NCBI GenBank assembly: GCA_964407105.1
Contig: CAYOUG010000002.1
Location: 11,041-75,040 of the forward strand
Direction of reading: 5' to 3'
Source of the DNA: an uncultured Candidatus Saccharibacteria bacterium
GTDB lineage: Bacteria > Patescibacteriota > Minisyncoccia > Phycocordibacterales > CALRHW01
DNA length: 64,000 nt
The notes below the pieces were generated by a model, which saw only the letters and a program-made list of their open reading frames with translations, had not been told where the DNA came from and did not search any database. The position numbers and the translations under genes are program-made. Numbering within the stretch: position 1 is the first letter of the stretch; every line of letters starts with the position of its first letter. Positions 5,230 through 36,894 of this stretch are shown here, piece by piece.

Positions 5230-5337
5230 AAAACCAAAAACCATCTTTGGAAAACCACGCATAAATCGCTGCTGCGATTTTGCTACGCTCGGCCCGTCGG
5301 CCTGCGCGATGCTTTTCCAAAGATGGTTTTTGGTTTT
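5230..5337 (+). repeat. copy 1 of a conserved 58-nt GC-rich core (5255-5312) inside a perfect 25-bp AT-rich inverted repeat
   Basis: The arms are AAAACCAAAAACCATCTTTGGAAAA and TTTTCCAAAGATGGTTTTTGGTTTT. The core is CCACGCATAAATCGCTGCTGCGATTTTGCTACGCTCGGCCCGTCGGCCTGCGCGATGC. The core is repeated at 34218-34275 (minus) and 36819-36876. Confidence 0.9.
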
Positions 5338-5393
5338 TCCTTATACACATAAACAAATACTCCGATTGTCTTTTTTCCGCTATAATTAAAGTA

Positions 5394-5918
5394 ATGTTTG
5401 CCGATCCTATAAAAAACATAGAAAGCTTTTCACTTATTTCTGGTATGACAATAGCAGATCTTGGTGCTGGCTCTGGTGCGTATACGGTGCCCATAGCTCG
5501 TGCGGTGGGTGGTTTGGGAAAGGTGTATGCGGTAGACGTGCAAAAAGACCTTCTTACGCGCATAAAAAATGATGCCAACAAACAACACCTCATGAACATA
5601 GAGGTGGTGTGGGGAGATATTGAAAAACGCGGTGGTACTAAAATACGTGAGGGCTGTATCGATGGTGCTATTGCAAGCAACATTCTTTTTCAACTTCACG
5701 ACAAAGAGGGTTTTAGAGACGAAGTAAAAAGAATATTAAAACCCGGCGGTAGGGTGTTTATTATAGATTGGACGGATTCATTTGGTGGTCTTGGACCACA
5801 GCAGGCATCAGTATTTTCTCTTGCATCGTGCAAATCACTTTTTTCTAATGGTTTTTCAGTAGAAAAAGAATTTAGTGCGGGCACTCATCATTACGGGATA
5901 ATTTTCAAAAAACAATAA
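5394..5918 (+). CDS. class I SAM-dependent methyltransferase
   Basis: The SAM-binding motif I is ADLGAGSGAYT, and acidic and hydrophobic post-motifs follow (VYAVDVQ, FIIDW). The track ORF has an N-terminal extension that reads through the repeat; the ATG at 5394 is the likely start. Confidence 0.7.
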   Translation: MFADPIKNIESFSLISGMTIADLGAGSGAYTVPIARAVGGLGKVYAVDVQKDLLTRIKNDANKQHLMNIEVVWGDIEKRGGTKIREGCIDGAIASNILFQLHDKEGFRDEVKRILKPGGRVFIIDWTDSFGGLGPQQASVFSLASCKSLFSNGFSVEKEFSAGTHHYGIIFKKQ

Positions 5919-5919
5919 T

Positions 5920-7224
5920 ATGAAAAACATGAGCAAATTTCAGTTAATATTTACCGGTGTTTTTGTCGCTCTTATTTTTTTTGCAGTGATATTATTTTCT
6001 ATTGGCGGTATAGGGTCTTCCAATAATCAGTCTTCAGATCTTGTTGTGTGGGGTACTTTAAATGCGGCGCAATTTTCACAAATTGTAGAACGTTCTGGTT
6101 TAAAAAATAACAAATCACTAAAATTTACATATGTTCAAAAAAATGATGCCACTTTTGATACAGATTTTATAGAAGCGTTGGCTTCGGGTGTTGGTCCAGA
6201 TCTTTTCTTTTTACCGCAAAATTCAATACTTAAACATCAAGACAAACTTTATGTAATTCCATACAAAACCCTTTCCGAAAGAGATTTTAAAGACGTGTTT
6301 ATTGAGGAAGGGGAGCTTTATCTTACTTCAAAAGGTGTTCTTGGTATTCCTTTTATCATTGACCCACTTGTGATGTATTGGAATCGTACGATTTTTTCAA
6401 ATGCTGGCGTGAGTGCTCCACCAAAATATTGGAGTGACTTGTATGATCTTGCGCCACGTCTTGTTACAAAAGACGGTGCACTTAATGTGCGCCAAAGTGC
6501 TATTGCTTTTGGAGAATATTCAAACGTTTCTCATGCTCAAGATATACTTAGTATGCTTGTGATGCAGGCGGGTGGAAAAATAGCAGAGCGTCAATCAGAT
6601 GTTGTTACTAGTACACTTTTAAATAAATACAATGCACCGATAGTGCCAGCAAACACAGCGCTTAGTTTTTACACCGAATTTACAAATCCACTAAAGCCAT
6701 TTTATTCTTGGAACCGATCACTTTTAGCTTCAAAAAATTATTTTATTTCTGGTGATTTAGCGATTTATATCGGTTATGCTTCAGAGGTTGGTGAAATTCG
6801 TGCCAAAAATCCAAATCTTAATTTTGACGTGGCAAAAGTGCCACAATCGAAAGAAACAACACAAACTCTCACCTTTGGATCAATGCAAGCATTAGCCATA
6901 CCAAAAGCGTCTAAAAAACAAGCTGGCGCGGTAGAAGCCGCTCTTCTTTTGGTGGGTAAACCAGCACTTACCGAGCTTATAAACGTCACAAGTTTGCCGC
7001 CAGTGCGCCGTGACATGCTTTTGTCACAACCAGATGACAAATATATGTCGATATTTTATGAAAGTGCTGTGCAGGCTCGTGCATGGCTTGAACCCGATCG
7101 ATCACAAACCAAAAATATTTTTAAAGAAATGATAGAGTCTGTCACAAGTGGTAGGCGCACGATTAATGAGTCTGTGTCGCGTACAGATCTTGAACTTAAT
7201 GGATTATATAAAGAATTACAATAA
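5920..7224 (+). CDS. extracellular solute-binding protein (ABC transporter substrate-binding, family 1-like) with N-terminal membrane anchor
   Basis: The 434-aa product has an N-terminal transmembrane helix followed by a periplasmic-binding-protein-like fold (MalE-type length and composition). Confidence 0.55.
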   Translation: MKNMSKFQLIFTGVFVALIFFAVILFSIGGIGSSNNQSSDLVVWGTLNAAQFSQIVERSGLKNNKSLKFTYVQKNDATFDTDFIEALASGVGPDLFFLPQNSILKHQDKLYVIPYKTLSERDFKDVFIEEGELYLTSKGVLGIPFIIDPLVMYWNRTIFSNAGVSAPPKYWSDLYDLAPRLVTKDGALNVRQSAIAFGEYSNVSHAQDILSMLVMQAGGKIAERQSDVVTSTLLNKYNAPIVPANTALSFYTEFTNPLKPFYSWNRSLLASKNYFISGDLAIYIGYASEVGEIRAKNPNLNFDVAKVPQSKETTQTLTFGSMQALAIPKASKKQAGAVEAALLLVGKPALTELINVTSLPPVRRDMLLSQPDDKYMSIFYESAVQARAWLEPDRSQTKNIFKEMIESVTSGRRTINESVSRTDLELNGLYKELQ

Positions 7225-7646
7225 TGAAAAAACCTTTTTTACAACGTATCACTGTAGTAATGATGTTTTTGCTTATATTTTTTGTGATTGCTATGCCTGC
7301 AGTATCATTTGCTAAAATTAAAAGCGGTATTATACCTTGTGGCAACACTCCACCCGGTGCAACATTGGAACAAATAAATGCAGAGGCCTGTGATTTCAAC
7401 GATTTTCTTCAGTTAGGTAAAAATATTATTAATTATTTGGTGTTATTATCAATCCCACTTGCCGCGATTGCTTTTGCGTGGGCTGGATTTTTATACATTA
7501 CTTCGGGTGGAAGTGAGGGAAAAATTGGTAAAGCAAAAGATATATTTTGGAAGGTGATGTGGGGATTTATTTTTATTCTCACCGCGTGGCTGATAGTCTA
7601 CAGTATTACCAAGTTTTTGGACCCAGGATTTTCGTATCTTGGTTAA
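7224..7646 (+). CDS. pilin-like two-transmembrane protein, VirB2/TrbC (T4SS pilin)-like family, paralog 1
   Basis: A signal peptide is followed by a Cys-containing N-domain and a conserved C-terminal core (AFAWAGFLYITSGGSEGKIGKAKDIFWKVMWGFIFILTAW). All six tandem paralogs share the pattern hydrophobic helix, [FW]WG, acidic/basic loop ending in R/K, WGhh, second helix. Confidence 0.6.
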   Translation: MKKPFLQRITVVMMFLLIFFVIAMPAVSFAKIKSGIIPCGNTPPGATLEQINAEACDFNDFLQLGKNIINYLVLLSIPLAAIAFAWAGFLYITSGGSEGKIGKAKDIFWKVMWGFIFILTAWLIVYSITKFLDPGFSYLG

Positions 7647-7695
7647 TGTGTGTAGTATTCTCGACTTTATGAAACAGAAAAAATATAATAGATAT

Positions 7696-8085
7696 ATGAA
7701 ATTTCTTTCAAATGTGATGTTGGGGCTTTTGTTTGCCTTAGCGATTTTTGTGCCCTTTGTGCACGCAGAAATTACGTCTGGTAATTTATTTCCAAATCCA
7801 CTTGGTGACAGTGTTGGTAATAGTTTATATGGTTTTGTGTATTTTGTTCTTACAAATATTGTGATGCCTATTGGTTCCGTTGTCGTAGTATTTTTCATTA
7901 TTTATGCTGGATTTTTGTTTGTTACTGCGCGTGGCAATGAAAAGAAGCTTGAAAGCGCTAAAAAAACCTTTCTTGCTGTGGTTATCGGTGCAGTTATTTT
8001 ACTCGGCTCTTGGACAATCGCGAGTGCTATAAAAGGTACACTGTGTCAGATTTCTGGTGGAAATATTCCTGATCTATGTAACTAA
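7696..8085 (+). CDS. pilin-like two-transmembrane protein, paralog 2
   Basis: A signal peptide is followed by the core (FFIIYAGFLFVTARGNEKKLESAKKTFLAVVIGAVILLGSW) and a C-terminal Cys pair (LCQISGGNIPDLCN). Confidence 0.55.
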   Translation: MKFLSNVMLGLLFALAIFVPFVHAEITSGNLFPNPLGDSVGNSLYGFVYFVLTNIVMPIGSVVVVFFIIYAGFLFVTARGNEKKLESAKKTFLAVVIGAVILLGSWTIASAIKGTLCQISGGNIPDLCN

Positions 8086-8086
8086 T

Positions 8087-8497
8087 ATGAAAAAATATCT
8101 TACAAATTTTATAGGAATATTTCTTTTCGTGATTTTTCTGAGTGTACCAAACATAGCGTCAGCTCAGTTTTTGCAAGGCCTTTTTGGTTGTCCGGTTCCT
8201 CCGCAAAATTTTTCTGAGGTTGTGTGTATTTTTGTAGATATTTTACTTCTTCTCGTGCCACTTCTTGTAGGTATCGCATTACTTGTATTTTTCTGGGGCA
8301 TCGTAAAGTTTATTAAAAGTGCTGGTAGTGAAACTGCGCGAGACGATGCAAAAAATATTATGTTTTGGGGTATTATCGCTCTTTTTGTAATGGTTTCTAT
8401 TTGGGGTATCGTGCAATTTTTCTTTCAAGACTTTTTTGGTTTTAGTGTCGGTATTCATGTGTTTGGTATTCCACAGCTTCCATTTTTTCCAAATTAA
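8087..8497 (+). CDS. pilin-like two-transmembrane protein, paralog 3
   Basis: A signal peptide is followed by a Cys pair and the core LLVFFWGIVKFIKSAGSETARDDAKNIMFWGIIALFVMVSIWG. Confidence 0.6.
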   Translation: MKKYLTNFIGIFLFVIFLSVPNIASAQFLQGLFGCPVPPQNFSEVVCIFVDILLLLVPLLVGIALLVFFWGIVKFIKSAGSETARDDAKNIMFWGIIALFVMVSIWGIVQFFFQDFFGFSVGIHVFGIPQLPFFPN

Positions 8498-8506
8498 TTT
8501 TAAATT

Positions 8507-8803
8507 ATGTTTCAAATTTCTAACATTCAGCAACTCATTTTGGGCGTGACCTCTCTTGTGAAAATGCTTATTCCGCTTGTGGCAGGTATCGCATTACTTG
8601 TATTTTTTTGGGGCCTGGCAAAATTTGTGCTTCACGCAGACAGTGAAGATGCGCGTGAAGAGGGAAGGCGTCTTATGTTTTGGGGTATTATCGCTCTTTT
8701 TGTGATGATATCTGTATGGGGACTTGTATATTTTATTGGATCAGCTCTTGGTATTGGCCAGGGTGGTATAATGGGCTCTTTTTTCTCTTGGTCTGGATGG
8801 TAA
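8507..8803 (+). CDS. pilin-like two-transmembrane protein, paralog 4
   Basis: The core LLVFFWGLAKFVLHADSEDAREEGRRLMFWGIIALFVMISVWG is almost identical to the paralog 3 core. Confidence 0.6.
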   Translation: MFQISNIQQLILGVTSLVKMLIPLVAGIALLVFFWGLAKFVLHADSEDAREEGRRLMFWGIIALFVMISVWGLVYFIGSALGIGQGGIMGSFFSWSGW

Positions 8804-8926
8804 AAACATAAGCTATTCACATATCTTGCTGTCGTTGCGGTTGTATTAGGTTGTTCATAATAGTATGATTATATTGTGGTTTTTACACGTCGAAACGACG
8901 ATTATTATTTAAATAATTAAAGAAAG

Positions 8927-9268
8927 ATGAAAAAAGTTATTTTACTATTGGGATTATTTGCTACCCCATTATTTATACACGCACAAGTACTTGGAAACAT
9001 AACAGAAATTTTGAATGCAATAAAAAATATTGTTTCAAACCTTATTCCAATTATATTTGCACTTATTCTTATATATTTCTTTTGGGGTTTGGCAAAATTT
9101 GTGCTCAATTCAGGTGATGAAGACGCTCGAACAAACGGACGACAGATGATGATTTGGGGACTTGTGGCACTTTTTGTAGCTTCTGCGGTGTGGGGTCTTA
9201 CAAAGTTTATTGGAGATGCTATTGGTGTAGATAATGTAGATTCTGTAGACGTTCCTAGTATAAATTAA
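8927..9268 (+). CDS. pilin-like two-transmembrane protein, paralog 5
   Basis: The signal peptide is MKKVILLLGLFATPLFIHA and the core is LILIYFFWGLAKFVLNSGDEDARTNGRQMMIWGLVALFVASAVWG. Confidence 0.6.
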   Translation: MKKVILLLGLFATPLFIHAQVLGNITEILNAIKNIVSNLIPIIFALILIYFFWGLAKFVLNSGDEDARTNGRQMMIWGLVALFVASAVWGLTKFIGDAIGVDNVDSVDVPSIN

Positions 9269-9285
9269 ATCTGACTGTTAGTTTA

Positions 9286-9552
9286 ATGACGATTAATCAG
9301 CTTCTCAACAACATAATAGCTTACATTCTTCAGCCAATTATTTTGCTTATGTTTGCTATTGCTCTTGTTACTTTTTTCTGGGGCATTATTCAATTTATTT
9401 CCACATCAAACAGTGATGAGGGAAGAGAAACTGGCAAACGTACTATTGTGTGGGGGATTATTGGAATGCTTATAATGATAGGTGTGTATGGTGTTATTCG
9501 TATTTTGCTAGGCACTTTCGGTATTCCTGCTCCAAGTTATTTGGGATTTTAG
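9286..9552 (+). CDS. pilin-like two-transmembrane protein, paralog 6
   Basis: The core is ALVTFFWGIIQFISTSNSDEGRETGKRTIVWGIIGMLIMIGVYG. Confidence 0.55.
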   Translation: MTINQLLNNIIAYILQPIILLMFAIALVTFFWGIIQFISTSNSDEGRETGKRTIVWGIIGMLIMIGVYGVIRILLGTFGIPAPSYLGF

Positions 9553-9570
9553 GGTTTTGCAATTTAATCG

Positions 9571-9645
9571 AAAATAAAACAAAAAAACACTTCTCGAGTG
9601 GTTTAGCGAAGCGCTTTAACGAGAGAAGTGTTTTTTTGTTTTATT
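9571..9645 (+). terminator. long AT-rich hairpin terminator ending the pilin-like array
   Basis: A roughly 24-26-bp inverted repeat, AAAATAAAACAAAAAAACACTTCTCG with CGAGAGAAGTGTTTTTTTGTTTTATT, flanks a 23-nt loop AGTGGTTTAGCGAAGCGCTTTAA. Confidence 0.6.
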
Positions 9646-9661
9646 ATTATGTAACGTATCC

Positions 9662-9695
9662 AAAAAAAAGCGGCGAGTCTCGAAAGACTCGCCGC
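9662..9695 (-). terminator. rho-independent terminator of the minus-strand gene 9715-11007
   Basis: GCGGCGAGTC, loop tcgaaa, GACTCGCCGC is a perfect 10-bp stem at 9670-9695. The A8 run at 9662-9669 gives a U-run on the minus strand. Confidence 0.7.
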
Positions 9696-9714
9696 GCACG
9701 TTCACCCAAAGTTG

Positions 9715-11007
9715 TTACTTAAAGGTGATCGTGTAAGTGATGGGTGAACCCCCATCTGGTGCTCGGAACGCAATCGTCCGAATCGCCCCACCAAGATCTC
9801 TCTCGGCGGAAATCTGCATCCCCGGTTCGTACCAAAACTCTCTCGAGTCATTAATACGAATCCACGCCCCGCTACTGGTTTCGCACCCAATGTGCTTTCC
9901 AGCGACGTTGTACGTTTCGCTTTCTTTTCCTGGCATCAGCGTGCCTGTGATAACGGGCTTTGAAGAAGGTTGTGACACGTTTGTCACTGGCCTTCCCCAC
10001 GTTCCGTCTTTCTTGAGACCAATCGTGGCATCAAGAATGAGGAGTGTGATTGCTCCCACAATAACGAGCGTGATCGCACCCTTCAAAACCGCACTAAACG
10101 TTCCGGTGAAGAATGTCCAGCGGTCTTTGGCGGTAACCCTGTTCTTGTCTTCCACCACCTCTGGCTTTTTGAAGAGCCATGCAAGGAGCAGAACACTAGC
10201 CAGTCCAACAATCAGCCAAAACTCCAACGGTTTGTCCGCTTTAGTTTTTTCTAATGTCGGAACTACTGTGTGCTCCCACACGTCAGTGAACACAAGGCTC
10301 ATGATGACGTAGATGAGAACAATAAGGCAGAACAACCCCAAAAGCTTCTTCCAGAATGTGCCAGATGGTACGAATGGCTTGGTAGAGTCTATCACCCTTC
10401 CGAACCGCCCTCTTGGCGGGTTCGCAGGTGTCGGTGGTGATGTGGTGGCTGGCACCGCAGGTGTCGGCGACGTTGTCGTCGCAACCCTAGATTTTTGATT
10501 GGCCAGATATTTCTTCCGGAGAATCAACACCACCACAATACCAACAGCCAGCATGATTAGGTTGTTTACCAAGTTTCCTTGGACCACATTAACCACTTCA
10601 GCTGTTGCGGGTGATTCATCTACCACTTCCTCTTTGCTGTTTGAAGACAAGGAAAGAAATGGGTAGATGAGTGGGAAATACGTCGTGGATGAGTAAACGA
10701 CCATCACCGTGGTCGCAACCACCCCAACGAAAAACACCGCAAGCGAGGTGGTGGCCTTGTGTTTCCACAGATAATCACCCAACTTTTTTGTCTGTGTCCA
10801 CACCCACACGAAGCACCAATGAATGATACTTCGTGTTGTTTTGACAAAGGCAGTTCTCCTAAATCTCCTTGTTGTCATTGCGACCGCTGTTCCGAGTCGA
10901 TACCGACCAACCCATTCAAAGAATGAGGTATCGAGTATTACCCAGAACACCATACTGATCACAGAAATCAACAGAAGCAGGCCCACAAGGGCCAAAATTG
11001 TCCACAT
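9715..11007 (-). CDS. GC-rich polytopic membrane protein with Pro/Thr-rich linker and C-terminal beta-rich extracytoplasmic domain (hypothetical)
   Basis: The 430-aa product has multiple transmembrane helices, a TTTSPTPAVPATTSPPTPANPP linker, and a C-terminal soluble domain. Its GC content is about 50%, against about 38-40% in neighbouring genes. Confidence 0.6.
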   Translation of the reverse strand: MWTILALVGLLLLISVISMVFWVILDTSFFEWVGRYRLGTAVAMTTRRFRRTAFVKTTRSIIHWCFVWVWTQTKKLGDYLWKHKATTSLAVFFVGVVATTVMVVYSSTTYFPLIYPFLSLSSNSKEEVVDESPATAEVVNVVQGNLVNNLIMLAVGIVVVLILRKKYLANQKSRVATTTSPTPAVPATTSPPTPANPPRGRFGRVIDSTKPFVPSGTFWKKLLGLFCLIVLIYVIMSLVFTDVWEHTVVPTLEKTKADKPLEFWLIVGLASVLLLAWLFKKPEVVEDKNRVTAKDRWTFFTGTFSAVLKGAITLVIVGAITLLILDATIGLKKDGTWGRPVTNVSQPSSKPVITGTLMPGKESETYNVAGKHIGCETSSGAWIRINDSREFWYEPGMQISAERDLGGAIRTIAFRAPDGGSPITYTITFK

Positions 11008-11102
11008 AGGGCCTCCAGTTTGGTTGAATGAAAGGGAATTGTGAAAGGACGCTACGGTTTAAACCTTATCATAAAAAAATATAAAAGTCAAGTTTTTTAC
11101 AT

Positions 11103-11134
11103 GAAAAAGGCCCGCGACAACTCTGTCGCGGGCC
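11103..11134 (-). terminator. GC-rich rho-independent terminator of the SPFH gene
   Basis: GGCCCGCGACA, loop actc, TGTCGCGGGCC (11109-11134) is preceded on the plus strand by an A-run, which gives a U-run on the minus strand. Confidence 0.7.
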
Positions 11135-11165
11135 GGCTTGCTTTGAAGAACATACAACAGTGGAT

Positions 11166-12455
11166 CTAGGGCGTCCCTGGAGACGGTGGAGTCGTGGTTG
11201 TTGGGGGGGTTGTGGTTGTTGGAACCCCCTTGTCTCCCGCACCAAGCAATCCTTCCATAGCTGCTGCCATGAGTGGATTTCCTGCACCTCCATTACCCAT
11301 GAAAACAGTCTTGGTCTTGTCTCCACCCCACACGTCTTTAGCTGTTTGGGCTTGAAGAGCTAGTTGACCTTCACGTGTCTTCGCTGTTTTAGCGAGCCTT
11401 GCCAAACCAGCAGCTTCGCCCTCAAGCTCGTGCTTACGAGCCAGACCTCTACCTTGTCCATTAAGAATTGATTGCTCTCTGGTTGCCTCTGCGTCGGTGA
11501 TCGTTTTTCCCTTATTTGCTAATGCCTCACTTCGATTTGCCATAGCAAGGCTTACCCTTTTCGGAATTCCAAGATCAGTGATCTGGATTCCTTCATTGTC
11601 GATGTCGATACCCCACTGGTTTTTTTCATTTGACTCGGTGGCTGTTCCGGCGGCAACGTCCGGATCACCGATTGCTTCACCGACCTTTTTCTGAATGCTT
11701 GTCTTGAGTTCTTCTAATCTAGTTCGAGCCGTCGCCAAGCTCATTTTGCCCGACTCTGCTTGAAGTACACCCGTAACACTGTCTGCCAATGTCACACCCA
11801 CTTGCTCAAGGCTGTTAAACCTTTCTGCAAATGCAATGGTGTCGAAGATACTTAATCGAATCGTGATTCTCGGGTCTGTTGTAATCTCAGTGCGCAACGG
11901 GTTATTGTTAGTATTAGGACCGGTGTCAGCACTCCATATGACCCTGAACGGATCATTACTTCTCAGAAGCACGTCACCACGACTATCAAAAGTCGAAAAG
12001 TGACTAGTGATTCCGCTGTTTCCAGACGGAATAATGTTTCCTTCTTCATCCAAAATCGTTCTCGGTGTTGCAAGTTCGATTTGGATTTTTGATCCCGGAA
12101 AGGGTCGGAGAGAACACACTAGAAATGGCACAAACACAATTCCTGCCTTTACCCTTTGAATGGGTTTGCCGAAAAATAGTTTGACACCAATATCCGGTGC
12201 TGTAACTGACCGAAAACTAAGCGCAATGTAAATTACGCCAAGCCCCCCAAACAGCAAATCCGTGCTGATCGTTTGTCCGAAAATGGAGTATTGCTTACCG
12301 AATCCGGTAAACCACTTCCATCCAACAAACAGAACGACGATCGAAACAACGACCGTCATCCAAAACAGGAAAAACCTACGCCAGTTGTCATTCCGCATTT
12401 CATCTCGAGTCATGGTTTGTCTCCAGTAAGGTGTTGTATTTATTGTTCTTCGCAC
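11166..12455 (-). CDS. SPFH/band-7 (stomatin/HflK/C/flotillin-like) membrane protein with C-terminal Thr/Pro-rich tail
   Basis: An N-terminal transmembrane helix precedes SPFH-like core segments (IVFVPFLVCSLRPFPGSKIQIELATPRTIL, RITIRLSIFDTIAFAERF) and a long Ala/Glu-rich helical region. The tail is TTTTPPTTTTPPSPGTP. The gene is GC-rich. Confidence 0.6.
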   Translation of the reverse strand: MRRTINTTPYWRQTMTRDEMRNDNWRRFFLFWMTVVVSIVVLFVGWKWFTGFGKQYSIFGQTISTDLLFGGLGVIYIALSFRSVTAPDIGVKLFFGKPIQRVKAGIVFVPFLVCSLRPFPGSKIQIELATPRTILDEEGNIIPSGNSGITSHFSTFDSRGDVLLRSNDPFRVIWSADTGPNTNNNPLRTEITTDPRITIRLSIFDTIAFAERFNSLEQVGVTLADSVTGVLQAESGKMSLATARTRLEELKTSIQKKVGEAIGDPDVAAGTATESNEKNQWGIDIDNEGIQITDLGIPKRVSLAMANRSEALANKGKTITDAEATREQSILNGQGRGLARKHELEGEAAGLARLAKTAKTREGQLALQAQTAKDVWGGDKTKTVFMGNGGAGNPLMAAAMEGLLGAGDKGVPTTTTPPTTTTPPSPGTP

Positions 12456-12483
12456 ATCTCAAAGAACGTTCTTTACTGTTGTA

Positions 12484-14097: not shown

Positions 14098-15639
14098 TTA
14101 AAGTTGTTTTTCTACAACACGTACAGATTCTATTCGATCACCGGGTGCAAGCTCTATTTTTGATTCAATGAGAGCGCCAAACTCAACACCCTCTTCCACT
14201 TCTGAGGCTTTTTCTTTAAATCTTTGAAGACCGCGTATTCTACCATTACCTATTTCTGCATCACGACGTAATATTTTTACTTGTGAACCGACACTAATCA
14301 TCCCACTTTCTACTTTTCCTCCTATTACGTGTTTGTCTTTTGTGGTGCTAAATATTTTTGCAATGCGAGCTTTGCCTGTGGATTCTTCTACGGACACATG
14401 AGGTTTTCGTTCATTTAAAAGTGCTTCTAGCCATTCGAGAAGTTTGTAAATGATATCAAATGTATAAATTGTTACGCCAGATCTTTCGGCGAGACTTATG
14501 GCAAGGGGATCAGCTTTTGTATGAAAACCAACCACAAAAGAAGAGCTGTCACCAATAGCGAGTTTTATGTCGGTTTCAGATATGGCGCCGATACCACTTT
14601 GAATTATTGAAAATTCTACCTGATCATTTTTTAGTTGTGAAATTTTATTTACTACAGCTTCAAGACTTCCACCCATATCTGCACGAATAATGAGGGGGAT
14701 TACAACGCGTTCGTTTGCACCACCACGTGATTCAGAAACTTTTTTCTTTTGTTCGTTTGCGGTTTTTTCAGCTTCTTGTGTTGCGTACAATTCTGCTTCT
14801 TTTTTTGTTGCAAATGTTTTAAACGGTGTACCTACAGCAGGAAGAATGTTCCAACCGATTACTCTTATTGGACTTGAAAAAGTTGCTTCTTTAATATTTT
14901 TTCCCATAAAATTTTCCATAATACGAATTGGCGATATACTTTTTCCAGCAACCACAAACATTCCTTGTGAAATTGTGCCATTTTGAATTATGAGTGTCGC
15001 GGTAATACCTTTTTTTGGATCAAGATTACTTTCAAGCACTACACCTTCTGCGGACACGCTGTGATTGGCGGTAAGTTCTTCAATTTCTGCAACAAGAAGC
15101 ATCATATCCAGAAGATCGTTTACGCCTTCGCCGGTTTTTGCAGAAATGGAAACGGTGGGAATATCACCACCATAACCTTCAATAAAAATTTCATTTTCAG
15201 CCAGACTTTGTTTTGTGTATTCTATGTTTGCGTTTGGTAGATCAATTTTATTTATTGCAACGATAAAAGGAACACCAGATTCTTTTATACATTTAAGCGC
15301 ATCGAGTGTTTGAGGTTTTACACCATCTTCGGCAGAGACAACAAGAACAGCAATATCTGCCACTTGAACACCGCGCATACGCAATGATTGAAAGGCTTCG
15401 TGTCCGGGTGTGTCAAGAAAAGTGATTGTGTGTTTTTCACCATCTTTACTTGTGTGAATTACTTCGTAGGCAGATACGTGCTGTGTAATGCCGCCAGCTT
15501 CTTTTGCGATAATGTTTGTTTTGCGAATATAATCAAGCAAGCTTGATTTTCCATGATCAATATGACCCATTACAGCAATAATAGGCGGTCTTAGAGACTG
15601 CTTTGTAGAAGCGGTTTTTTGTGGTGCAGTTTTTTTCAT
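14098..15639 (-). CDS. infB: translation initiation factor IF-2 (short form lacking N-terminal domains)
   Basis: The G domain is IIAVMGHIDHGKSSLLD / DTPGHEAF / NKID, followed by beta-barrel domains. It is 513 aa. Confidence 0.92.
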   Translation of the reverse strand: MKKTAPQKTASTKQSLRPPIIAVMGHIDHGKSSLLDYIRKTNIIAKEAGGITQHVSAYEVIHTSKDGEKHTITFLDTPGHEAFQSLRMRGVQVADIAVLVVSAEDGVKPQTLDALKCIKESGVPFIVAINKIDLPNANIEYTKQSLAENEIFIEGYGGDIPTVSISAKTGEGVNDLLDMMLLVAEIEELTANHSVSAEGVVLESNLDPKKGITATLIIQNGTISQGMFVVAGKSISPIRIMENFMGKNIKEATFSSPIRVIGWNILPAVGTPFKTFATKKEAELYATQEAEKTANEQKKKVSESRGGANERVVIPLIIRADMGGSLEAVVNKISQLKNDQVEFSIIQSGIGAISETDIKLAIGDSSSFVVGFHTKADPLAISLAERSGVTIYTFDIIYKLLEWLEALLNERKPHVSVEESTGKARIAKIFSTTKDKHVIGGKVESGMISVGSQVKILRRDAEIGNGRIRGLQRFKEKASEVEEGVEFGALIESKIELAPGDRIESVRVVEKQL

Positions 15640-16278: not shown

Positions 16279-17175
16279 TTGCAAAAGGACTCAATTTCTC
16301 TTATGATTAGTGTATCTATGGAGGATCTTAGTAAAACTCAAATAGTTCTTTTGTGTCTTCTCGTAAGTTTTGTAACTTCTATCGGAACGGGAATTATTTC
16401 TTTTTCATTACTTAGTGAAGTTCCTCAAACTATAACACAAACCATAAACAGAGTTGTGGAGCGCACAATTGAGAAAGTGGTGCCTGTTGTCACGCCCGGT
16501 GATAAAACTATTCAAAAAGAGATAACGACGGTGGTGGTAAAAGAAGACGATTTGGTAATGGAGGCGATTGCGAAAAATGAAAAAAGTATTGTAAGAATTA
16601 GTACTTTAGCCGCTAACACCAGCGCAAGCAGTACAAACGCATCTATAATATACGGTCTTGGACTCATTGTTACAAAAGATGGTGTGGTGGTAGCGGATGC
16701 TCATGCAATAGATGCTACCGCACAATATATAGCAACACTTTCTGATGGAAAAAAATACACACTTTCACCAATGAAATCTATTACAGAAAATCCAGAAATA
16801 TTATTTTTTGAAATTAAAAAAGAAAAAGACGATAAAACAATATTTACACCAGCCACACTTGGCAATTCTGATGGACTCCAACTCGGACAAACAGTTATTG
16901 CAATAAGTGGTATAGAAAATTCTTCTGTAACAATAGGTTATATTTCTGGTTTAAAAAAGAGTGTTCCTGATGCCAGTGGTGCTGTTTCTTTTGTGGGCAT
17001 TGAAACAGATATTATATCGAAAAATACTATTACAGGTGGGCCGCTGTTAAATCTTTCCGGTCAAGTGATAGGCCTAACCACTCTTGGTGCCACCGGTTCA
17101 AATGCACCACCATTTACTCCAATCAACCTAATACAATCTGCTCTTTTAAGTCAGCAAAATTCTTCACAAAACTAA
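16279..17175 (+). CDS. membrane-anchored trypsin-like serine protease (S1 family, HtrA-like catalytic domain without PDZ)
   Basis: An N-terminal transmembrane helix is followed by motifs of a chymotrypsin fold (..DAHAI.., TGGPLLNLSGQVIGL around the catalytic Ser). Confidence 0.6.
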   Translation: MQKDSISLMISVSMEDLSKTQIVLLCLLVSFVTSIGTGIISFSLLSEVPQTITQTINRVVERTIEKVVPVVTPGDKTIQKEITTVVVKEDDLVMEAIAKNEKSIVRISTLAANTSASSTNASIIYGLGLIVTKDGVVVADAHAIDATAQYIATLSDGKKYTLSPMKSITENPEILFFEIKKEKDDKTIFTPATLGNSDGLQLGQTVIAISGIENSSVTIGYISGLKKSVPDASGAVSFVGIETDIISKNTITGGPLLNLSGQVIGLTTLGATGSNAPPFTPINLIQSALLSQQNSSQN

Positions 17176-30920: not shown

Positions 30921-30935
30921 ACGGTGCGGAAAATA

Positions 30936-31640
30936 ATGCGAATTATGAATATAGACTTTTCAAAATTTGAAAAAAAGGCCGGAGTAATATTTAGCGACAA
31001 AAAACTTTTAAAACAAGCTTTTGTTCATCGTTCATATATTAATGAAAACAAGGATTCTGGTTTTGATCATAATGAACGTTTGGAATTTTTGGGTGATGCG
31101 GTGCTCGAACTTGTAATTACTGACTATTTGTATCAAAAATATCCAAATGAAGACGAGGGTCATATGACAAGTTTGCGCTCAGCTCTTGTAAATGCCACCA
31201 CTTGTGCACAGGTGGCGACAACACTTGATGTCAATGATTTTCTTCTTCTTTCGCGCGGTGAAACAAAAGACACCGGCCGAGCTCGACAATATATTTTAGC
31301 AAATACACTTGAGGCGGTGATCGGTGCTATTTATTTAGATCAAGGTTATGAAATAGCGAAAAAATTTATTTACGAACATATTTCTCCGCTAGTTGAAGAT
31401 ATAATTTCAAAAAAGGCATGGATTGATGCAAAAAGTCTTTTTCAAGAAAAAGCTCAGGAGGTGGAGGGGGTTACTCCATTGTATAAAACAACAAAAGAAA
31501 CTGGTCCAGACCACGATAAGCGATTTACTGTAGCTGTGCATTTAGGTAAAAAACTCATAGCTTCTGGAGAAGGTGAATCAAAACAAGATGCTGAGCAAGA
31601 AGCGGCACGCAAAGGACTTATAAAAATGGGTTGGGAATAA
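30936..31640 (+). CDS. rnc: ribonuclease III
   Basis: The signature is ERLEFLGDAVLELVITDYLY. A C-terminal dsRBD is present. Confidence 0.9.
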   Translation: MRIMNIDFSKFEKKAGVIFSDKKLLKQAFVHRSYINENKDSGFDHNERLEFLGDAVLELVITDYLYQKYPNEDEGHMTSLRSALVNATTCAQVATTLDVNDFLLLSRGETKDTGRARQYILANTLEAVIGAIYLDQGYEIAKKFIYEHISPLVEDIISKKAWIDAKSLFQEKAQEVEGVTPLYKTTKETGPDHDKRFTVAVHLGKKLIASGEGESKQDAEQEAARKGLIKMGWE

Positions 31641-31915
31641 AAAGAAAACCCCCACCACTAAAGGTATGGGGTTTATGGGCATTGTTTCTGGTTTTTGTTT
31701 TTCATGACATGTATCTGAAGAGCACCAGAAGTAGAACTGCGCCCACGAGAATGAAGATACCGATTAAGGTGATGTTTAGAGACTCTCGTTTTCGTTCATC
31801 CATTTTCACACTCCTATTCTTTTGATATGCACCCGATTCTTTAAAGAGAATATAATAAAAATCGTTAAAGTCAACTGTTTTATGAGTCTAAAATTAATGA
31901 TATTCTGTACTGTAT

Positions 31916-34171
31916 ATGTATCTCAAAAGCCTTGAACTCAATGGATTTAAGTCTTTTGCCAAAAAAAGCACACTCGATTTTAAATCACCAATTTCTTCAA
32001 TTGTTGGGCCAAACGGATCTGGCAAATCAAACATTGCTGAAGCTTTTCGTTTTGTGTTGGGTGAACAATCAATAAAATCTTTGCGTGGAAAAAGAGGAGA
32101 AGACTTGATTTTCAATGGTAGCAGTGAAGTGCCGCGTTCAAATCGTGCCTCAGTAAAAGTTGTTTTTGATAACCATAATCGTTTTTTAAATATAGATTTT
32201 GATGAAGTTACTTTAGAGCGTGTTGTGCATCGCGACTCGGTGAATGAATATTTTATCAATGGTAGTGTGGTGCGTCTGAAAGATATTATCGAGCTTCTTG
32301 CTCAAGCACACATAGGTTCTTCTGGACACCACATTATTTCTCAGGGTGAGGCAGATAAAATTTTGAATGCGAATATGCGTGAACGCAGAGCAATGATTGA
32401 AGATGCGCTTGGACTTAAAATTTATCAATATAAAAGGCAGGAGAGCGAAAGAAAACTCGAAAAAACACAAGAAAATATTGTATCTGTAGAATCGCTTAGA
32501 AAAGAGGTGGCGCCACATTTGCGATTTTTGAAAAAACAGGTAGAAAAAGTTGAAAAAACATTTCAAATGAAAGAAGAGCTCCGTGCACTTTATATGGAGT
32601 ATCTAAAACGTGAAGATGAATATTTAAAAAAAGAAAAAACATCACTTGATTTAGAAAAAAATCCGTTAGACCAAGAACTTAAAAAACTTGAAGAAGAACT
32701 TTTACAAGCAAAAAAAATTCTAGAACAATCTACTGAAAAAGATAAAAAAAGTGCAGAATTAATTTCTCTGGAAGAACAAATTCGTTCTGTGCGCGTACAT
32801 AAAGATGAATTTGTACACAACCTTGGAAAAATTGAGGGAGAGATTTCTTCGGAGGAACGTATTATTAAAAAACAGCACGAAATCGAGCGTTCTGAAGATG
32901 GGAAAATGGTAAGTTTCAAGGATATCGCTCGTGTGGCAGATGAAGTAAAAAAAGAGATTAAAATAGTTGATGGTTTAAATAGTCTTGAAGAAGTTAAAAA
33001 ACTTCTTCGGGTGGTTGCGGATATGATTATTGGTTTTGTGGCGTCACATCGCACGGCTGGCAACGATTCACTTTCAAAAGAATCAGAAGTGCTTGTGGTT
33101 TCTTTAAATGCCGAGAAAAAAGATATTGAAAATAAAATTCAAGAATTAAAACAGAAAGAAGATGAGTTACAACTAAAATACAACGAGCTAAAAAACGTTA
33201 TCGAACGAGAAAAAGATACAAACAGGCAAGCAGAACGAGATATGTTTTCTGTTATGACGCGTCAGCAAGAGGTGTTTTCAAAACTAGCTACCATTCGTGC
33301 TTCACAAGAAAAAATTCGAATCGAAGAAGAGGATTTTAAACGTGAACTCAATGAAGCTGGGGTGCTTATTGGTCGTGCGGTTTTAGATTTTGTTAACTAT
33401 ATAGTTTCTTCAGATGGTGACCAATCTCGTGGTGCTCAAGAAGAACGTCGACGCGCTATTGAGAAAATTAAAATTAGGATTGAAGATGCTGGTGGTAGTT
33501 CTGGTGAAGATATTTTGAAAGAATATAAAGAGGTCAGCGAGCGTGACACATTTTTGGAGCGTGAGTTGGAAGATTTACATAAATCAGCAGAATCTCTCAA
33601 GAAACTTATTGAGGAATTGGATGAAAAACTCACAACAGAATTTAAAAATGGTGTAGAAAAAATCAATACACAATTTGAACATTTTTTTGCCCTAATGTTT
33701 GGTGGTGGACAAGCGTCTCTTAAAATAGTAAAAGAAAAAAAGAAAAAACGTCTTGATACAGATTTGGGCGTGCTTGATATAGAAAATGTGGAAGAGATTT
33801 TTGAGGAAGAAGGGGAAGAAGGTTTGGATATTGAAGTAAATTTACCAAGAAAAAAAATAAAAGGTCTTGTGATGCTTTCTGGCGGCGAGCGAGCTCTCAC
33901 TTCTATTGCGCTTCTTTTCGCAGTATCTCAAGTAAACCCCCCACCATTTATTATTCTTGATGAAACTGACGCGGCGCTTGACGAAGCAAATTCAAAAAAA
34001 TACGGAGATATGATAGAAAGTCTTTCAAAATATTCTCAACTTATTTTGATTACTCACAATCGCGAAACAATGTCTCGTGCGGGAATTTTATACGGCGTGA
34101 CCATGGGTTCTGGTGGAGTTTCAAAACTTCTTTCTATTGAATTTGAAGAGGCGGTGGTGGTGGCGAAGTAA
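31916..34171 (+). CDS. smc: SMC-family ATPase (short chromosome-partition Smc-like protein with no obvious hinge)
   Basis: The Walker A is GPNGSGKSN, the central coiled coil is long, and the signature LSGGERALTSIALLFA and D-loop FIILDETDAALD follow. It is 751 aa. Confidence 0.65.
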   Translation: MYLKSLELNGFKSFAKKSTLDFKSPISSIVGPNGSGKSNIAEAFRFVLGEQSIKSLRGKRGEDLIFNGSSEVPRSNRASVKVVFDNHNRFLNIDFDEVTLERVVHRDSVNEYFINGSVVRLKDIIELLAQAHIGSSGHHIISQGEADKILNANMRERRAMIEDALGLKIYQYKRQESERKLEKTQENIVSVESLRKEVAPHLRFLKKQVEKVEKTFQMKEELRALYMEYLKREDEYLKKEKTSLDLEKNPLDQELKKLEEELLQAKKILEQSTEKDKKSAELISLEEQIRSVRVHKDEFVHNLGKIEGEISSEERIIKKQHEIERSEDGKMVSFKDIARVADEVKKEIKIVDGLNSLEEVKKLLRVVADMIIGFVASHRTAGNDSLSKESEVLVVSLNAEKKDIENKIQELKQKEDELQLKYNELKNVIEREKDTNRQAERDMFSVMTRQQEVFSKLATIRASQEKIRIEEEDFKRELNEAGVLIGRAVLDFVNYIVSSDGDQSRGAQEERRRAIEKIKIRIEDAGGSSGEDILKEYKEVSERDTFLERELEDLHKSAESLKKLIEELDEKLTTEFKNGVEKINTQFEHFFALMFGGGQASLKIVKEKKKKRLDTDLGVLDIENVEEIFEEEGEEGLDIEVNLPRKKIKGLVMLSGGERALTSIALLFAVSQVNPPPFIILDETDAALDEANSKKYGDMIESLSKYSQLILITHNRETMSRAGILYGVTMGSGGVSKLLSIEFEEAVVVAK

Positions 34172-34200
34172 AAACTTTTAGAAAAGTCTAAAAACAAAAT

Positions 34201-34292
34201 AAAAAAGCTTTTGAAAAGCATCGCGCAGGCCGACGGGCCGAGCGTAGCAAAAAGCCAGCAGGCTTTTATGCGTGGTTTTCAAAAGCTTTTTT
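34201..34292 (-). repeat. copy 2 (reverse orientation) of the conserved 58-nt core (34218-34275), flanked by a perfect 17-bp AT-rich inverted repeat
   Basis: The arms are AAAAAAGCTTTTGAAAA and TTTTCAAAAGCTTTTTT. The core on the minus strand is CCACGCATAAAAGCCTGCTGGCTTTTTGCTACGCTCGGCCCGTCGGCCTGCGCGATGC. Confidence 0.9.
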
Positions 34293-34317
34293 ATTTTGTT
34301 TTTTTACTTTCCTTTCT

Positions 34318-36294
34318 TTAACCCACCAACACATAATCTAGCGTTTTCCTATCCAAATCAGCGCCAGTAATTTTAAATTTTATTTTATCTCCAAGAGAAT
34401 ATTTTTTTCCAGTTTTACTACCCACAAGAGCATAATTTTTTTGATCGAGCTGATAAAAATCATCTTTCATATCGCGAATTTTTATCATGCCTTCACTTTT
34501 GGATTCAGCTTCTTCTACGTAAACACCCCACTCTGTAACGCCTGAAATGGTTCCATCAAACACACCGTCCATACGTTTACTCATATATTCTACCTGCTTA
34601 TATTTCACTGATGCGCGTTCTGCTTCTGCTGCCGCTATTTCTTTATCGGTAGTGTCAGATGCAATGCGTTCATATTTCGCAAATTCACCCTCTGATACTT
34701 TTCCACCTGTGAGATGACGCTGAAGTAATCGATGCACGATAAGATCAGCATATCGTCTGATTGGCGATGTAAAATGTGTATAAAATTCAAACCCAAGTCC
34801 GAAGTGACCAATGTTTTTTGTTGAATAAACCGCTTTTGCCATCGAACGTACGGTGGCTGTTTTTATCAAAAATTCAGCAGGGGAGCCGGTGATAGTTTTA
34901 AGCATCGCGGCGATATCTTTTGATGTAGTACTACCATTTGTAGAACGAAGTTCATAACCAAGGGCTTTTAAAAACATGGCGAGATCAGCAATTTTTTCTT
35001 GATTTGGCACATCATGAATACGATAAATAAATGACTGAGGTATTTTACTTTTTCCATGTGCTTTGAAAATAAATTCTGCTACTTCGCGATTTGCGAGAAG
35101 CATAAATTCTTCCACGAGCTTGTGAGTATCCATGCGCTCTTTGCGATACACTTTTATAGGTACACCGTTTTCATCAAGCTGAAATTTCACTTCTTCTGTT
35201 TCAAAATCTATTGCACCGTTTTCATAACGATATTTTTGAAATATTTTTGCAATTTTGTTTAGCGTATCGAGTTCTTCAAAATATTCTCCGCCATCAAGGT
35301 CTTTTGCGGCGTTTAGAGAGCCAGCAGTGAGCACCGCTTGAGCATTTTCGTAGGTAAAACGTTTGTTTGAATTGATCATCGTTTTTCCAAACCAACGATC
35401 TTTTACTTTTCCTTTTTCACTCATTACAAATACAGCAGAAAATGCAAATTTATCTTCGCGAGGATTGAGACTGCACATATCATTTGAAAGAACCTCTGGA
35501 AGCATTGGAATGGTGCGATCTACTAGATATACAGAAAAGCCACGTTTTCTAGCTTCGCGATCGAGCACTGAACCTTCGGTTACAAAGTGAGACACGTCGG
35601 CAATATGCACACCAATCTCGTAATCTCCATCAGGAAGTTTTTTAAATGAAATTGCATCATCAAAATCTTTTGCATCAACTGGGTCGATGGTGAAGGTGAG
35701 AGTGTCACGAAAATCTTTTCGCTTCGCCACCTCTTCATCAAAATGTTTATGTGCTTCGCTTGCTACGCGCTCTGCTTCGGCGTCCACCTCAACAGGAAAA
35801 CGAGTATCAAAACCTTTTTCAAGGACAATAGATTCCATTTCGACATTGTGCACACCCTTTTTTCCGATAACACGAAGTAATTCGCCTTGAGGGTTGCTAT
35901 CCATACCTGTCCACTCTGTAATGTGAACAAAAATTTTGTCACCTTCTTTAGCTTCACCCACCTTTTCTGTTGGTAAAAAAATATCCCGATACATTTTTTT
36001 GTTATCAGGAACAACAAAAAAACCTTTTTCAGCTTTTTCTAAAACACCAACAAATTCCATTTTTGCGCGCTTTACGATTTTTACCACCTCTCCTTGTTGG
36101 CGTACGTTTTTTACAGCAGGAAGAAGTTTTACTTCTACTTCGTCGCCATCAAGCGCCGTCTTTAAAAGCTGCCATTGAATTTCAATATCTTCACCTTCAG
36201 GATCATTTGGATTTTCTACATATCCCACAGCTTTTCCGGTGAGGGTAATATGGCCGATAATTTTCTTTTCGGCGTCGGTGTGTTTTTTAGTCAT
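34318..36294 (-). CDS. rnr: ribonuclease R (RNB-family 3'-5' exoribonuclease with C-terminal S1)
   Basis: Cold-shock-like and RNB domains are present, and the C-terminal S1 is GMIKIRDMKDDFYQLD. The likely start is MTKKHTDAEKK at 36294; the track ORF is extended upstream. Confidence 0.88.
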   Translation of the reverse strand: MTKKHTDAEKKIIGHITLTGKAVGYVENPNDPEGEDIEIQWQLLKTALDGDEVEVKLLPAVKNVRQQGEVVKIVKRAKMEFVGVLEKAEKGFFVVPDNKKMYRDIFLPTEKVGEAKEGDKIFVHITEWTGMDSNPQGELLRVIGKKGVHNVEMESIVLEKGFDTRFPVEVDAEAERVASEAHKHFDEEVAKRKDFRDTLTFTIDPVDAKDFDDAISFKKLPDGDYEIGVHIADVSHFVTEGSVLDREARKRGFSVYLVDRTIPMLPEVLSNDMCSLNPREDKFAFSAVFVMSEKGKVKDRWFGKTMINSNKRFTYENAQAVLTAGSLNAAKDLDGGEYFEELDTLNKIAKIFQKYRYENGAIDFETEEVKFQLDENGVPIKVYRKERMDTHKLVEEFMLLANREVAEFIFKAHGKSKIPQSFIYRIHDVPNQEKIADLAMFLKALGYELRSTNGSTTSKDIAAMLKTITGSPAEFLIKTATVRSMAKAVYSTKNIGHFGLGFEFYTHFTSPIRRYADLIVHRLLQRHLTGGKVSEGEFAKYERIASDTTDKEIAAAEAERASVKYKQVEYMSKRMDGVFDGTISGVTEWGVYVEEAESKSEGMIKIRDMKDDFYQLDQKNYALVGSKTGKKYSLGDKIKFKITGADLDRKTLDYVLVG

Positions 36295-36394
36295 TTGCCT
36301 AGAACTATAGCAGATTGCGTCTTTATGTAGAAGAGTATTTGTGGGGTTTTTCCATGCATTGACCATTTTATTCAATTCTGTTAAGATAATCGCC

Positions 36395-36796
36395 ATGTTA
36401 AAAATTCGATTACAACGAGTAGGACGCAAGCACGAACCCACATTTCGTCTTGTTCTTACCGACTCAAAAAACAGTCCAAAAAGTGGACGAACACTTGAAA
36501 CTCTTGGTGCATATGATTCTCGTCGAGGAGACAAAGCAGAATTTAAAAATGATCGAATAAAATATTGGATAACTCAGGGAGCACAACTTTCTGGAACGAT
36601 TCACAATCTTCTTGTTGATCGAAAGGTGATTGAGGGAAAGAAAGTAAACGTACTTCCAAAAAAGAAACCTATTGTAAAAGAGGGTACTGAAGCTCCAGTA
36701 GCATCGGCTCAGACAGAAACACCAGCTCAGGTGACGGAAACGGCACCAGTTGAAACTTCAGCTCCAGAAGTTGTTGCAGAAACTCCTGCGGCTTAA
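36395..36796 (+). CDS. rpsP: 30S ribosomal protein S16 with Ala/Pro/Thr/Glu-rich C-terminal extension
   Basis: MLKIRLQRVGRKHEPTFRLVLTDSKNSPKSGRTLETLGAYD is canonical bS16. Confidence 0.9.
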   Translation: MLKIRLQRVGRKHEPTFRLVLTDSKNSPKSGRTLETLGAYDSRRGDKAEFKNDRIKYWITQGAQLSGTIHNLLVDRKVIEGKKVNVLPKKKPIVKEGTEAPVASAQTETPAQVTETAPVETSAPEVVAETPAA

Positions 36797-36800
36797 AAAT

Positions 36801-36894
36801 AAAAGTGTTTTTCAAAAACCACGCATAAATCCCTGCTGGTATTTTGCTACGCTCGGCCCGTCGGCCTGCGCGATGCTTTTTGAAAAACACTTTT
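36801..36894 (+). repeat. copy 3 of the conserved 58-nt core (36819-36876), flanked by a perfect 18-bp AT-rich inverted repeat
   Basis: The arms are AAAAGTGTTTTTCAAAAA and TTTTTGAAAAACACTTTT. The core is CCACGCATAAATCCCTGCTGGTATTTTGCTACGCTCGGCCCGTCGGCCTGCGCGATGC. It begins 5 nt after the rpsP stop codon. Confidence 0.9.

Follow-up and report, generated by a model that had tools for sequence, protein, structure and literature searches.

A GC-rich two-hairpin core at the centre of palindromic terminators in Paceibacteria: a candidate non-autonomous interspersed repeat

What is one GC-rich segment of 58 nt doing three times within 64 kb of a bacterial genome, each time at the centre of a different palindrome? 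We address this question for a stretch of 64,000 nucleotides (hereafter, the window) from contig CAYOUG010000002.1, deposited as an uncultured Candidatus Saccharibacteria bacterium; its rpsP and gyrA products place the host in Parcubacteria/Paceibacterota, within the candidate phyla radiation (CPR, or Patescibacteria). Genomes of this group are tiny, gene-dense and thought to be repeat-poor, and their non-coding and mobile DNA is almost unexplored. We find that the segment, which we call the core, belongs to a multi-copy family with subfamilies and with truncated and nested members, that it occurs in both orientations, and that an orthologous site can be occupied in one lineage and empty in another. 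With modest confidence, we lean towards reading it as a small non-autonomous repeat, akin to miniature inverted-repeat transposable elements, abbreviated MITEs, or to repetitive extragenic palindromes (REPs), lodged at the dyad centre of palindromic intrinsic terminators in a Paceibacteria clade.

The core follows the pattern CCACGCATAAA-xxxx-C-TGCT-G-xxxx-TTTTGCTACGCTCGGCCCGTCGGCCTGCGCGATGC and is present at all three sites proposed in a first-pass annotation of the sequence (Table 1). Its 35-nt 3' block occurs exactly three times in the window, each time identical, where chance would give none, and an unfiltered covariance-model search of the window returned no fourth copy. Directly adjoining each core are AT-rich inverted repeats that are mutually unrelated, as had been described, and perfect or nearly so, but they are longer than the 17-25 bp first given to them: 26, 28 (with at most one mismatch) and 24 bp. 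The cores had also been placed immediately 3' of the upstream gene. Copies 2 and 3 do begin at the rnr and rpsP stop codons, the former between rnr and a convergent SMC-like gene, but copy 1 lies 190 nt from the gyrA stop, with another hairpin (5113-5155) between. Copy 1 has a minimum free energy of -57.3 kcal/mol (z = -9.7) and scores 110 bits with the covariance model. Two spurious open reading frames (ORFs), 5174-5683(-) and 36669-37025(-), pass through the core in the same frame and for that reason share the peptide HRAGRRAERSK, as the annotation held; one of them is already in a public protein collection as a 118-aa protein (P0121). A comparison of all stop-free frames of the core with 5.8 billion proteins, meant to reveal copies elsewhere through their spurious ORFs, returned nothing but the ORF of the window itself.

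Does the core occur outside the window? For relatives we retrieved the syntenic regions around rpsP and gyrA; a covariance model (R1) then served for the search (sequences other than the window carry L numbers). Further copies in relatives, which the annotation had proposed to look for, were found: ten full copies at 57-113 bits, making 13 distinct full copies in 7 lineages with the three in the window, besides one truncated copy (L017) and one 22-nt remnant (L020). The unit is ~68-80 bp long, consisting of a GC-rich core of 58-61 nt and short inner arms, and it comes in at least four core types (the window type, a GAGTC type, a GAGGC type and the variant-P2 type of L020), two of which coexist in one genome (L008/L017). 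By exact matching, a core 23-mer has one true match in 185,579 species genomes (L002), one chance match in high-GC coding sequence (L001) and no match in JGI metagenome contigs; an exact-pattern scan of viral contigs also found none. A pattern from the 5' half gave a true match among metagenome contigs in L005 and a chance match inside a gene in L004. Three Logan contigs, L003 (from the window's own strain), L007 and L009, break inside the core, L003 at both ends, as expected for a sequence that is repeated; in k=31 assemblies the breaks fall exactly inside the core. A near-match at window position 55107 is coding-like sequence, and we set it aside as chance.

An empty palindromic site at the orthologous position in a relative, a further proposal of the annotation, is present in L012, of the relatives available the one nearest to the window. 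There the SMC/rnr spacer holds a short palindromic bidirectional terminator, AAAAAACAGCTTT-TG-AAAGCTGTTTTTT, with no core. Apart from 1 nt, window copy 2 is an L012-like palindrome with GAAAA-core-TTTTC at its dyad centre, a comparison that needs no target-site duplication. The arms of copy 2 also carry a symmetric extra 10 nt, AAAATAAAAA in one and TTTTTATTTT in the other (28 vs 13 bp), which hints at DNA-level templated palindrome correction. L006 and L008 likewise have an AT-rich palindromic terminator without a core after rpsP; conversely, their copy in the KH-trmD spacer is absent from the window, and copy c of L020 is absent from L014 and L017. We rejected the trmD site of L006, compared with L008, as a clean empty site, there being an extra gene in L006. 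With these empty palindromes, and with copies at other sites, in both orientations and in truncated form, a mini-insertion element sitting in the loops of palindromic terminators is the better fit of the two explanations that the annotation had offered.

At rpsP, the arms in the window and in L012/L013 are clearly orthologous, and the core in L012/L013 is opposite in orientation to the window's. Just downstream of window copy 3 lies a remnant, in plus-strand terms TGCGTGG plus a third arm (R'), that forms a 31-nt inverted repeat with 36795-36825 and matches, in alignment, the end of the flipped L012 core together with the right arm of that core. Because of the flipped core and this remnant, the rpsP-site palindrome appears to have been rearranged or hit more than once. 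A common architecture is seen at two independent sites, window 36795-36944 and L020 12469-12790: a full copy with perfect arms is followed downstream by an opposite-orientation remnant of the core's 5' end and a near-duplicate arm, and L020 has, between the two, another complete copy in arms of its own. The recurrence suggests repeated hits or inversion-duplication at one palindrome. At another site (L017 8850-8999, L018 1445-1553), the L017 copy is truncated after 23 nt and its lost part is replaced by ~125 nt that include a complete hairpin of a second module, family B (see below), whereas the copy in L018, 87% identical, is intact. This pair shows module turnover at a single site.

The annotation's other explanation was a structured RNA element at the sense 3' ends of genes. 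Its structural part is supported by covariation, as described below, but the orientation rule fails. Copies are sense at window copy 1 with its counterparts in L014 and L020 (copy a), which make up one orthologous site, at window copy 3, and in L002/L005. They are antisense at no fewer than five sites: L012/L013, L006/L008, the second L008 copy, and copies b and c of L020. Window copy 2, between convergent genes, is ambiguous, and the L018 copy lies between divergent gene starts. The sense orientation seen in the window is thus not a property of the family. By analogy with REPs, a generic structural role is possible, since hairpins fold in either sense.

Which bases belong to the unit, and which to the site? 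Shared inner arms are GAAAA...TTTTC in the window type, TCGAAAA...TTTTCTCA in both L008 copies and TCAAAAAAsAG in L020 copies b and c; beyond these bases, arms at different loci are unrelated. As they recur at different loci, we take the shared bases to be the unit's own short terminal inverted repeats, only 5-12 bp in each subfamily and merging into the locus-specific palindrome. An A-tract, then a stem of 24-34 bp, then a T-tract make up the arms, which at most sites follow a stop codon directly (L018 is an exception); it is these arms, not the core, that fit the definition of a predicted intrinsic (Rho-independent) terminator. Long AT-rich stems escape a simple terminator scan. In these genomes, palindromes that are long, perfect and AT-rich but hold no module are common at gene ends (Table 1). 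One of them, at window 54083-54116, is a perfect 34-nt palindrome with no loop (AAAAAAACAGCAATACT/AGTATTGCTGTTTTTTT) and resembles an unoccupied dyad-centre site.

Such palindromes are the predicted bidirectional intrinsic terminators usual in this clade, and with the core placed exactly at their dyad centres, each copy comes to be enclosed by its own perfect inverted repeat. As to the chemistry of insertion, we propose that a trans-acting enzyme encoded elsewhere in the genome would copy the unit into the single-stranded tip that an extruded hairpin or cruciform exposes, the structure of the palindrome serving as the putative target. Insertion at the tip would leave the terminator stem intact and add a compact GC-rich cap, which the host may tolerate or even find useful. 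Recombination between the arms would flip the core, and templated palindrome correction would keep the arms perfect and could yield paired flips in the hairpins.

How does the unit fold? As a single strand it adopts a Y shape, in which the arms pair as an outer stem (P0) and the core forms two hairpins, P1 (GCA-U-AAAnnnC[UGCU]GnnnUUU-UGC) and P2 (CGC-U-CGGCC[CGUC]GGCC-U-G-C-GCG), with z-scores of -6.4 to -9.7. Over the 13 distinct copies, 96% of pairs are standard, a share that falls to 34-51% in controls with the partners slid by 1-3 columns. As the alignment behind the 96% figure was fitted to the covariance model, we repeated the count on an independent MAFFT alignment and found 97% paired. 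Both sides have changed in half of the P1 pairs (5/10) and in 2/8 P2 pairs, with G.U intermediates in P2, and the non-window core types have one extra P2 base pair. With pairing so far above the slid controls, and with changes on both sides of the pairs, the Y-shaped fold is real. Core pairs include three G.U and zero A.C, small numbers that hint that one defined strand folds.

Within the window, the compensatory changes first described in the P1 stem hold for two copies: against the family consensus ATCCC/GGGAT, both ATCGC/GCGAT and AAGCC/GGCTT are compensated flips. They do not hold for copy 3, in whose ATCCC/GGTAT one G->T change stands uncompensated and gives a C.U mismatch. The step from covariation to selection for structure also stands in part: the fold and its covariation are there, but templated palindrome correction on DNA could give the same pattern. 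We rejected an alternative fold with the core ends paired, in view of a compensated G-C -> A-U change at the P1 base (columns 20/45) in L020 copy a. We likewise rejected a coding explanation of P1, under which TCC, TCG and AGC would all be serine codons in one frame: partner-strand changes are not synonymous, stop codons abound in the arms, and the indels that separate the types consist of inserted base pairs. When all copies of the core family (family A) are aligned, the P1 alleles ATCCC, ATCGC and AAGCC recur across core types and variants of the P1 loop are lineage-specific: TGGT marks 3/3 L020 copies, and L014 and L018 carry TACT. Recombination or gene conversion among copies is, in part, the best explanation of this mosaic.

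The core is also conserved well beyond the neutral level. Between the window and L012, cores are 55/58 identical, whereas 4-fold degenerate sites are 46% identical and near saturation (P ~1e-16); on this comparison, the core would be under strong constraint or else of recent (re)introduction. At the gyrA site, the three copies of the window, L014 and L020 (copy a) agree in position, orientation and P1 allele (ATCGC), and differ at 6-9 other core positions.

Several observations weigh against a mobile repeat that homes to ready-made palindromes. The sharing of the gyrA site suggests long vertical retention with purifying selection, and with it a function for the host more than mere selfishness. 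In public data the element is rare, as the single true 23-mer match among species genomes illustrates, and the ~330 kb of sequence that were available yielded neither a transposase nor an autonomous element with matching ends; nor did a left or right end of the element stand alone anywhere in the window and 19 loci. No target-site duplication was seen at any copy, the flanks being inverted, not direct, at every one. All filled/empty pairs are between deeply diverged lineages with synonymous sites near saturation, so that gain and precise loss are indistinguishable in them and arms may partly arise or lengthen after insertion. Finally, the gyrA site of L016 and L019 is a 21-22-nt spacer with no hairpin, and the site of L020 copy c has only short GC hairpins, and no long palindrome, in L014 and L017; targeting of a pre-existing palindrome appears unsupported at these two sites.

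The last of these points raise the possibility that the palindromes are made or extended by or after insertion, whether by snap-back or quasi-palindrome templated synthesis or by layered nested terminal repeats. The symmetric arm growth at copy 2 relative to L012 would be expected of such a process, as would arms of 34-42 bp at L020 copy c where L014 and L017 have short GC hairpins, the missing gyrA-site palindrome in L016/L019, and the perfection of the arms in nearly all copies. Yet module-free long perfect AT-rich palindromes are common, and filled and empty lineages share the outer portions of their arms at rpsP and at SMC/rnr. We consider it rather unlikely that the palindromes were made or extended in this way.

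Could the core instead be a functional terminator module, either a structured RNA cap or a site that binds protein or is bound as single-stranded DNA, inherited mostly vertically and spreading rarely and secondarily? Such a cap might nucleate folding of the A-U stem, protect the 3' end from RNase R/PNPase, or be bound or processed by a trans factor such as RNase III. Conservation far above neutral would follow, as would a fold kept by compensatory changes, with three G.U against no A.C favouring one folded strand. The copies at the gyrA site in the window, L014 and L020 keep their position, orientation and P1 allele at ~75% gene identity; whole family-B hairpins are ~95% conserved between L016 and L017; and variation falls in mid-P1 while the loop and base are fixed, the pattern of a recognised hairpin. 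Against a cap, there is no orientation rule, and at about half of the sites the flanking mRNA would carry the antisense of the core; one copy falls in a promoter region between divergent genes; filled and empty sites are patchy, with some relatives lacking any terminator at the same position; truncated copies persist; two core types coexist in one genome (L008/L017); and there is no Rfam match. As the primary explanation we find a cap possible, though doubtful. It is compatible with a mobile repeat, the two not being mutually exclusive, and exaptation of such a repeat is possible, given conservation far above neutral.

Does the element belong to a known class? SPRITE, a terminator-like repeat with an AAAA/TTTT terminal inverted repeat (PMC3049150), is similar in being a small non-coding interspersed repeat enriched near gene 3' ends, with a long stem followed by a T-rich tract, minimal AAAA/TTTT termini, no demonstrable target-site duplication and a suggested co-option as terminator. 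In SPRITE, however, the repeat's own 18-bp duplex is what is conserved, whereas here the stem is locus-specific and the conserved part is a GC-rich two-hairpin cap; SPRITE is found in Firmicutes, not CPR, and has no sequence similarity to the core. Classical MITEs such as Correia, Nezha, RUP and BOX (PMC3184786, PMC10969869) are, like our element, short, non-coding, multi-copy, dispersed and strongly folding, with subfamilies and filled and empty sites. Here, in contrast, the unit is much shorter and its putative terminal inverted repeats span only 5-12 bp, and the window and 19 loci yielded neither a target-site duplication nor a parent insertion sequence (IS) with the same ends. ISPsy8, IS1397, ISKpn1 and IS621 insert at the symmetry axis of REP hairpins (PMC1525189), and so share with the core its exact placement at the dyad, or in the loop, of palindromic hairpins outside genes. 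They differ in being full-length, transposase-encoding elements that recognise a specific REP sequence, whereas the core is a non-coding unit of 58-61 nt in unrelated palindromes. Because the host palindromes are unrelated, any targeting would be by structure, not sequence.

The closest candidates with a single-strand enzyme are REP sequences with their families BIME and REPIN and the associated transposase RAYT (PMC3733652; PMC3184786). These too are short GC-rich extragenic hairpins, mostly 3' of genes and in either orientation, with conserved sequence and varying locations, and are thought to be both mobile and functional. A REP is a single imperfect palindrome of 20-40 nt, one end of which bears an unpaired tag, GTAG or CGTC (PMC3733652), and the reverse strand of the window type does have GTAG directly 5' of P1, just as GTAG-tagged REPs have. 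It could be, then, that the element is a REP/REPIN-RAYT member or a palindrome-associated transposable element (PATE) derived from IS200/IS605, moved as single-stranded DNA by a Y1 (HUH) transposase. The hairpin-tip location would suit a single-strand enzyme, the lack of a target-site duplication would fit, and L010 has a RAYT-like Y1_Tnp gene. However, the tag is not conserved across subfamilies: other core types have GGAG, and CGTC occurs only as the P2 loop. The unit comprises two hairpins inside a unique palindrome, not the single palindrome of a REP, and its copies are not REPIN doublets. The annotation's analogy with IS200/IS605 is likewise unsupported, as P1 and P2 differ in sequence and shape, unlike the end hairpins of that family. 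Its derivatives insert in one orientation, 3' of a fixed tetra- or pentanucleotide, whereas here one and the same site can hold either orientation; GAAAA is the usual left flank, but it is mirrored on the right. Searching the window, 64 kb of the source genome, by tblastn with the L010 Y1 protein returned no Y1 homologue, and neither the window nor L010 has a RAYT gene associated with the core or flanked by its repeats. The L010 gene itself is flanked by unrelated palindromes, and the 20 kb of L010 contain no copy of the core. We regard Y1-driven movement as improbable.

The L010 gene is of interest in its own right. At 16478-17142 it encodes a 207-aa Y1_Tnp protein (RAYT/IS200-like) with the palindrome GTCAAAGAGTCTCTTTGAC on both sides, a REP/RAYT-style arrangement in a CPR genome whose sequence is unrelated to the core.

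Outside these classes, Rfam at gathering thresholds identified only tRNAs in the window, and in E-value mode copy 1 had only chance-level matches far below family thresholds. Because the core is GC-rich in an AT-rich genome and identical in sequence between copies, we also considered an artefact: a vector, adaptor, spike-in or assembly chimera. Comparison with plasmids, phages and vectors gave only chance partial matches in GC-rich replicons, and the family recurs in independent assemblies (NCBI metagenome-assembled genomes (MAGs), a TPA MAG, JGI, ENA and Logan) with lineage-specific variants at syntenic sites. The probability of an artefact is, to our minds, negligible. The core is best filed as a small bacterial interspersed structured repeat that stands outside every named family, and we found no description of such repeats in CPR bacteria in the literature.

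A conserved, structured repeat living at the very tips of terminator hairpins, next to at least two other families of tip module (see below), would extend the range of small elements, mobile or exapted, by a new type. It would also speak for an insertion mechanism directed by structure, and give a handle on the evolution of transcription terminators in these organisms. In practical terms, the element breaks short-k assemblies and creates spurious ORFs (HRAGRRAERSK...), which bears on MAG quality and annotation.

Table 1. Copies of the core, their arms, and related palindromes in the window and in relatives.
Feature	Position	Strand or orientation	Remarks
Copy 1 left arm (P0)	5229-5254	+	26-bp perfect complement of 5313-5338; inner GAAAA common to other copies
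Copy 1 core, 58 nt	5255-5312	+	P1 5259-5283 (ATCGC/GCGAT, loop TGCT); P2 5286-5308
Copy 1 right arm	5313-5338	+	begins TTTTC; pairs with left arm
Copy 2 arm, element's 3' side	34190-34217	-	homologous to arms of L012 empty terminator
Copy 2 core	34218-34275	-	P1 34247-34271 (AAGCC/GGCTT); P2 34222-34244; 109 bits
Copy 2 arm, element's 5' side	34276-34303	-	adjoins rnr stop codon region
Copy 3 left arm	36795-36818	+	overlaps rpsP stop codon; orthologous to L012 rpsP terminator arm
Copy 3 core	36819-36876	+	P1 36823-36847 (ATCCC/GGTAT, one uncompensated mismatch); P2 36850-36872; 108.5 bits
Copy 3 right arm	36877-36900	+	24-bp perfect pairing with left arm
Copy 3 downstream remnant	36914-36944	-	7 nt of core 5' end, CCACGCA, and third arm R', one mismatch
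L002 copy	3' of murF	sense	2.3-kb contig binned as Saccharibacteria
L005 copy		sense	sister strain of L002; found with 5'-half pattern
L006/L008 copy	KH-trmD spacer	antisense to flanking genes	
L008 second copy	trmD-rpoB spacer	antisense to flanking genes	
L012/L013 copy	3' of rpsP	antisense	
L014/L015 copy	3' of gyrA	sense	
L018 copy	spacer between S1 and lactamase-B genes		divergent genes
L020 copies a, b	gyrA spacer	a sense, b antisense	
L020 copy c	between two minus-strand genes	antisense	
Family B, window	9571-9647		
Family B, L016	5-65		
Family B, L017	3250-3316, 7436-7496, 8919-8989		
Core-less palindromes, window	54083-54116, 57912-57961, 37407-37442		
Core-less palindrome, L006	10414-10458		
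Core-less palindrome, L012	6218-6245		SMC/rnr spacer

Are hairpin tips occupied by other modules as well? Surveying long hairpins, we identified a second family, B, whose module of 27 nt (GAnnGnnTTAGCnnAGCGCTTTAnnGA) is organised about a GCGAAGC-type mini-hairpin. It lies in both orientations within unrelated perfect AT-rich arms of 17-25 bp at gene ends, and its orthologous hairpins in L016 and L017 are ~95% conserved over arms and loop, compared with genes that are ~75% identical. In L010, two hairpins (10826-10875 and 14323-14391) have loops that share TCACCTTACTAnTnTGTAAGGCT in different AT-rich arms, a possible third family, C. These families strengthen the view of hairpin tips in this clade as a niche for small modules. 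A broader idea, which we hold only tentatively and think less likely to be true than false, is that of an unrecognised class of hairpin-tip mobile modules, with at least three unrelated families, that would home by structure, and not by sequence, to the single-stranded apex of extruded palindromic terminators, build, lengthen or perfect their arms with palindrome correction, and be retained as functional caps. If so, terminators in these streamlined genomes would be partly the product of a mobile-DNA process.

Two neighbouring features of the window copies complete the picture. The hairpin between gyrA and copy 1 has an 11-bp AT-rich stem (GAAAAATGAAG/CTTCATTTTTC) and a GC-richer loop of 26 nt containing GAGCGAAGCGAG, and may be a degenerate relative of family B. 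Just 3' of copy 3, a promoter-like TTGACC-16-TAAAAT at 36973-37000 is conserved in L012, which fits the palindrome there as the terminator of rpsP ahead of a separate promoter for the KH-domain gene.

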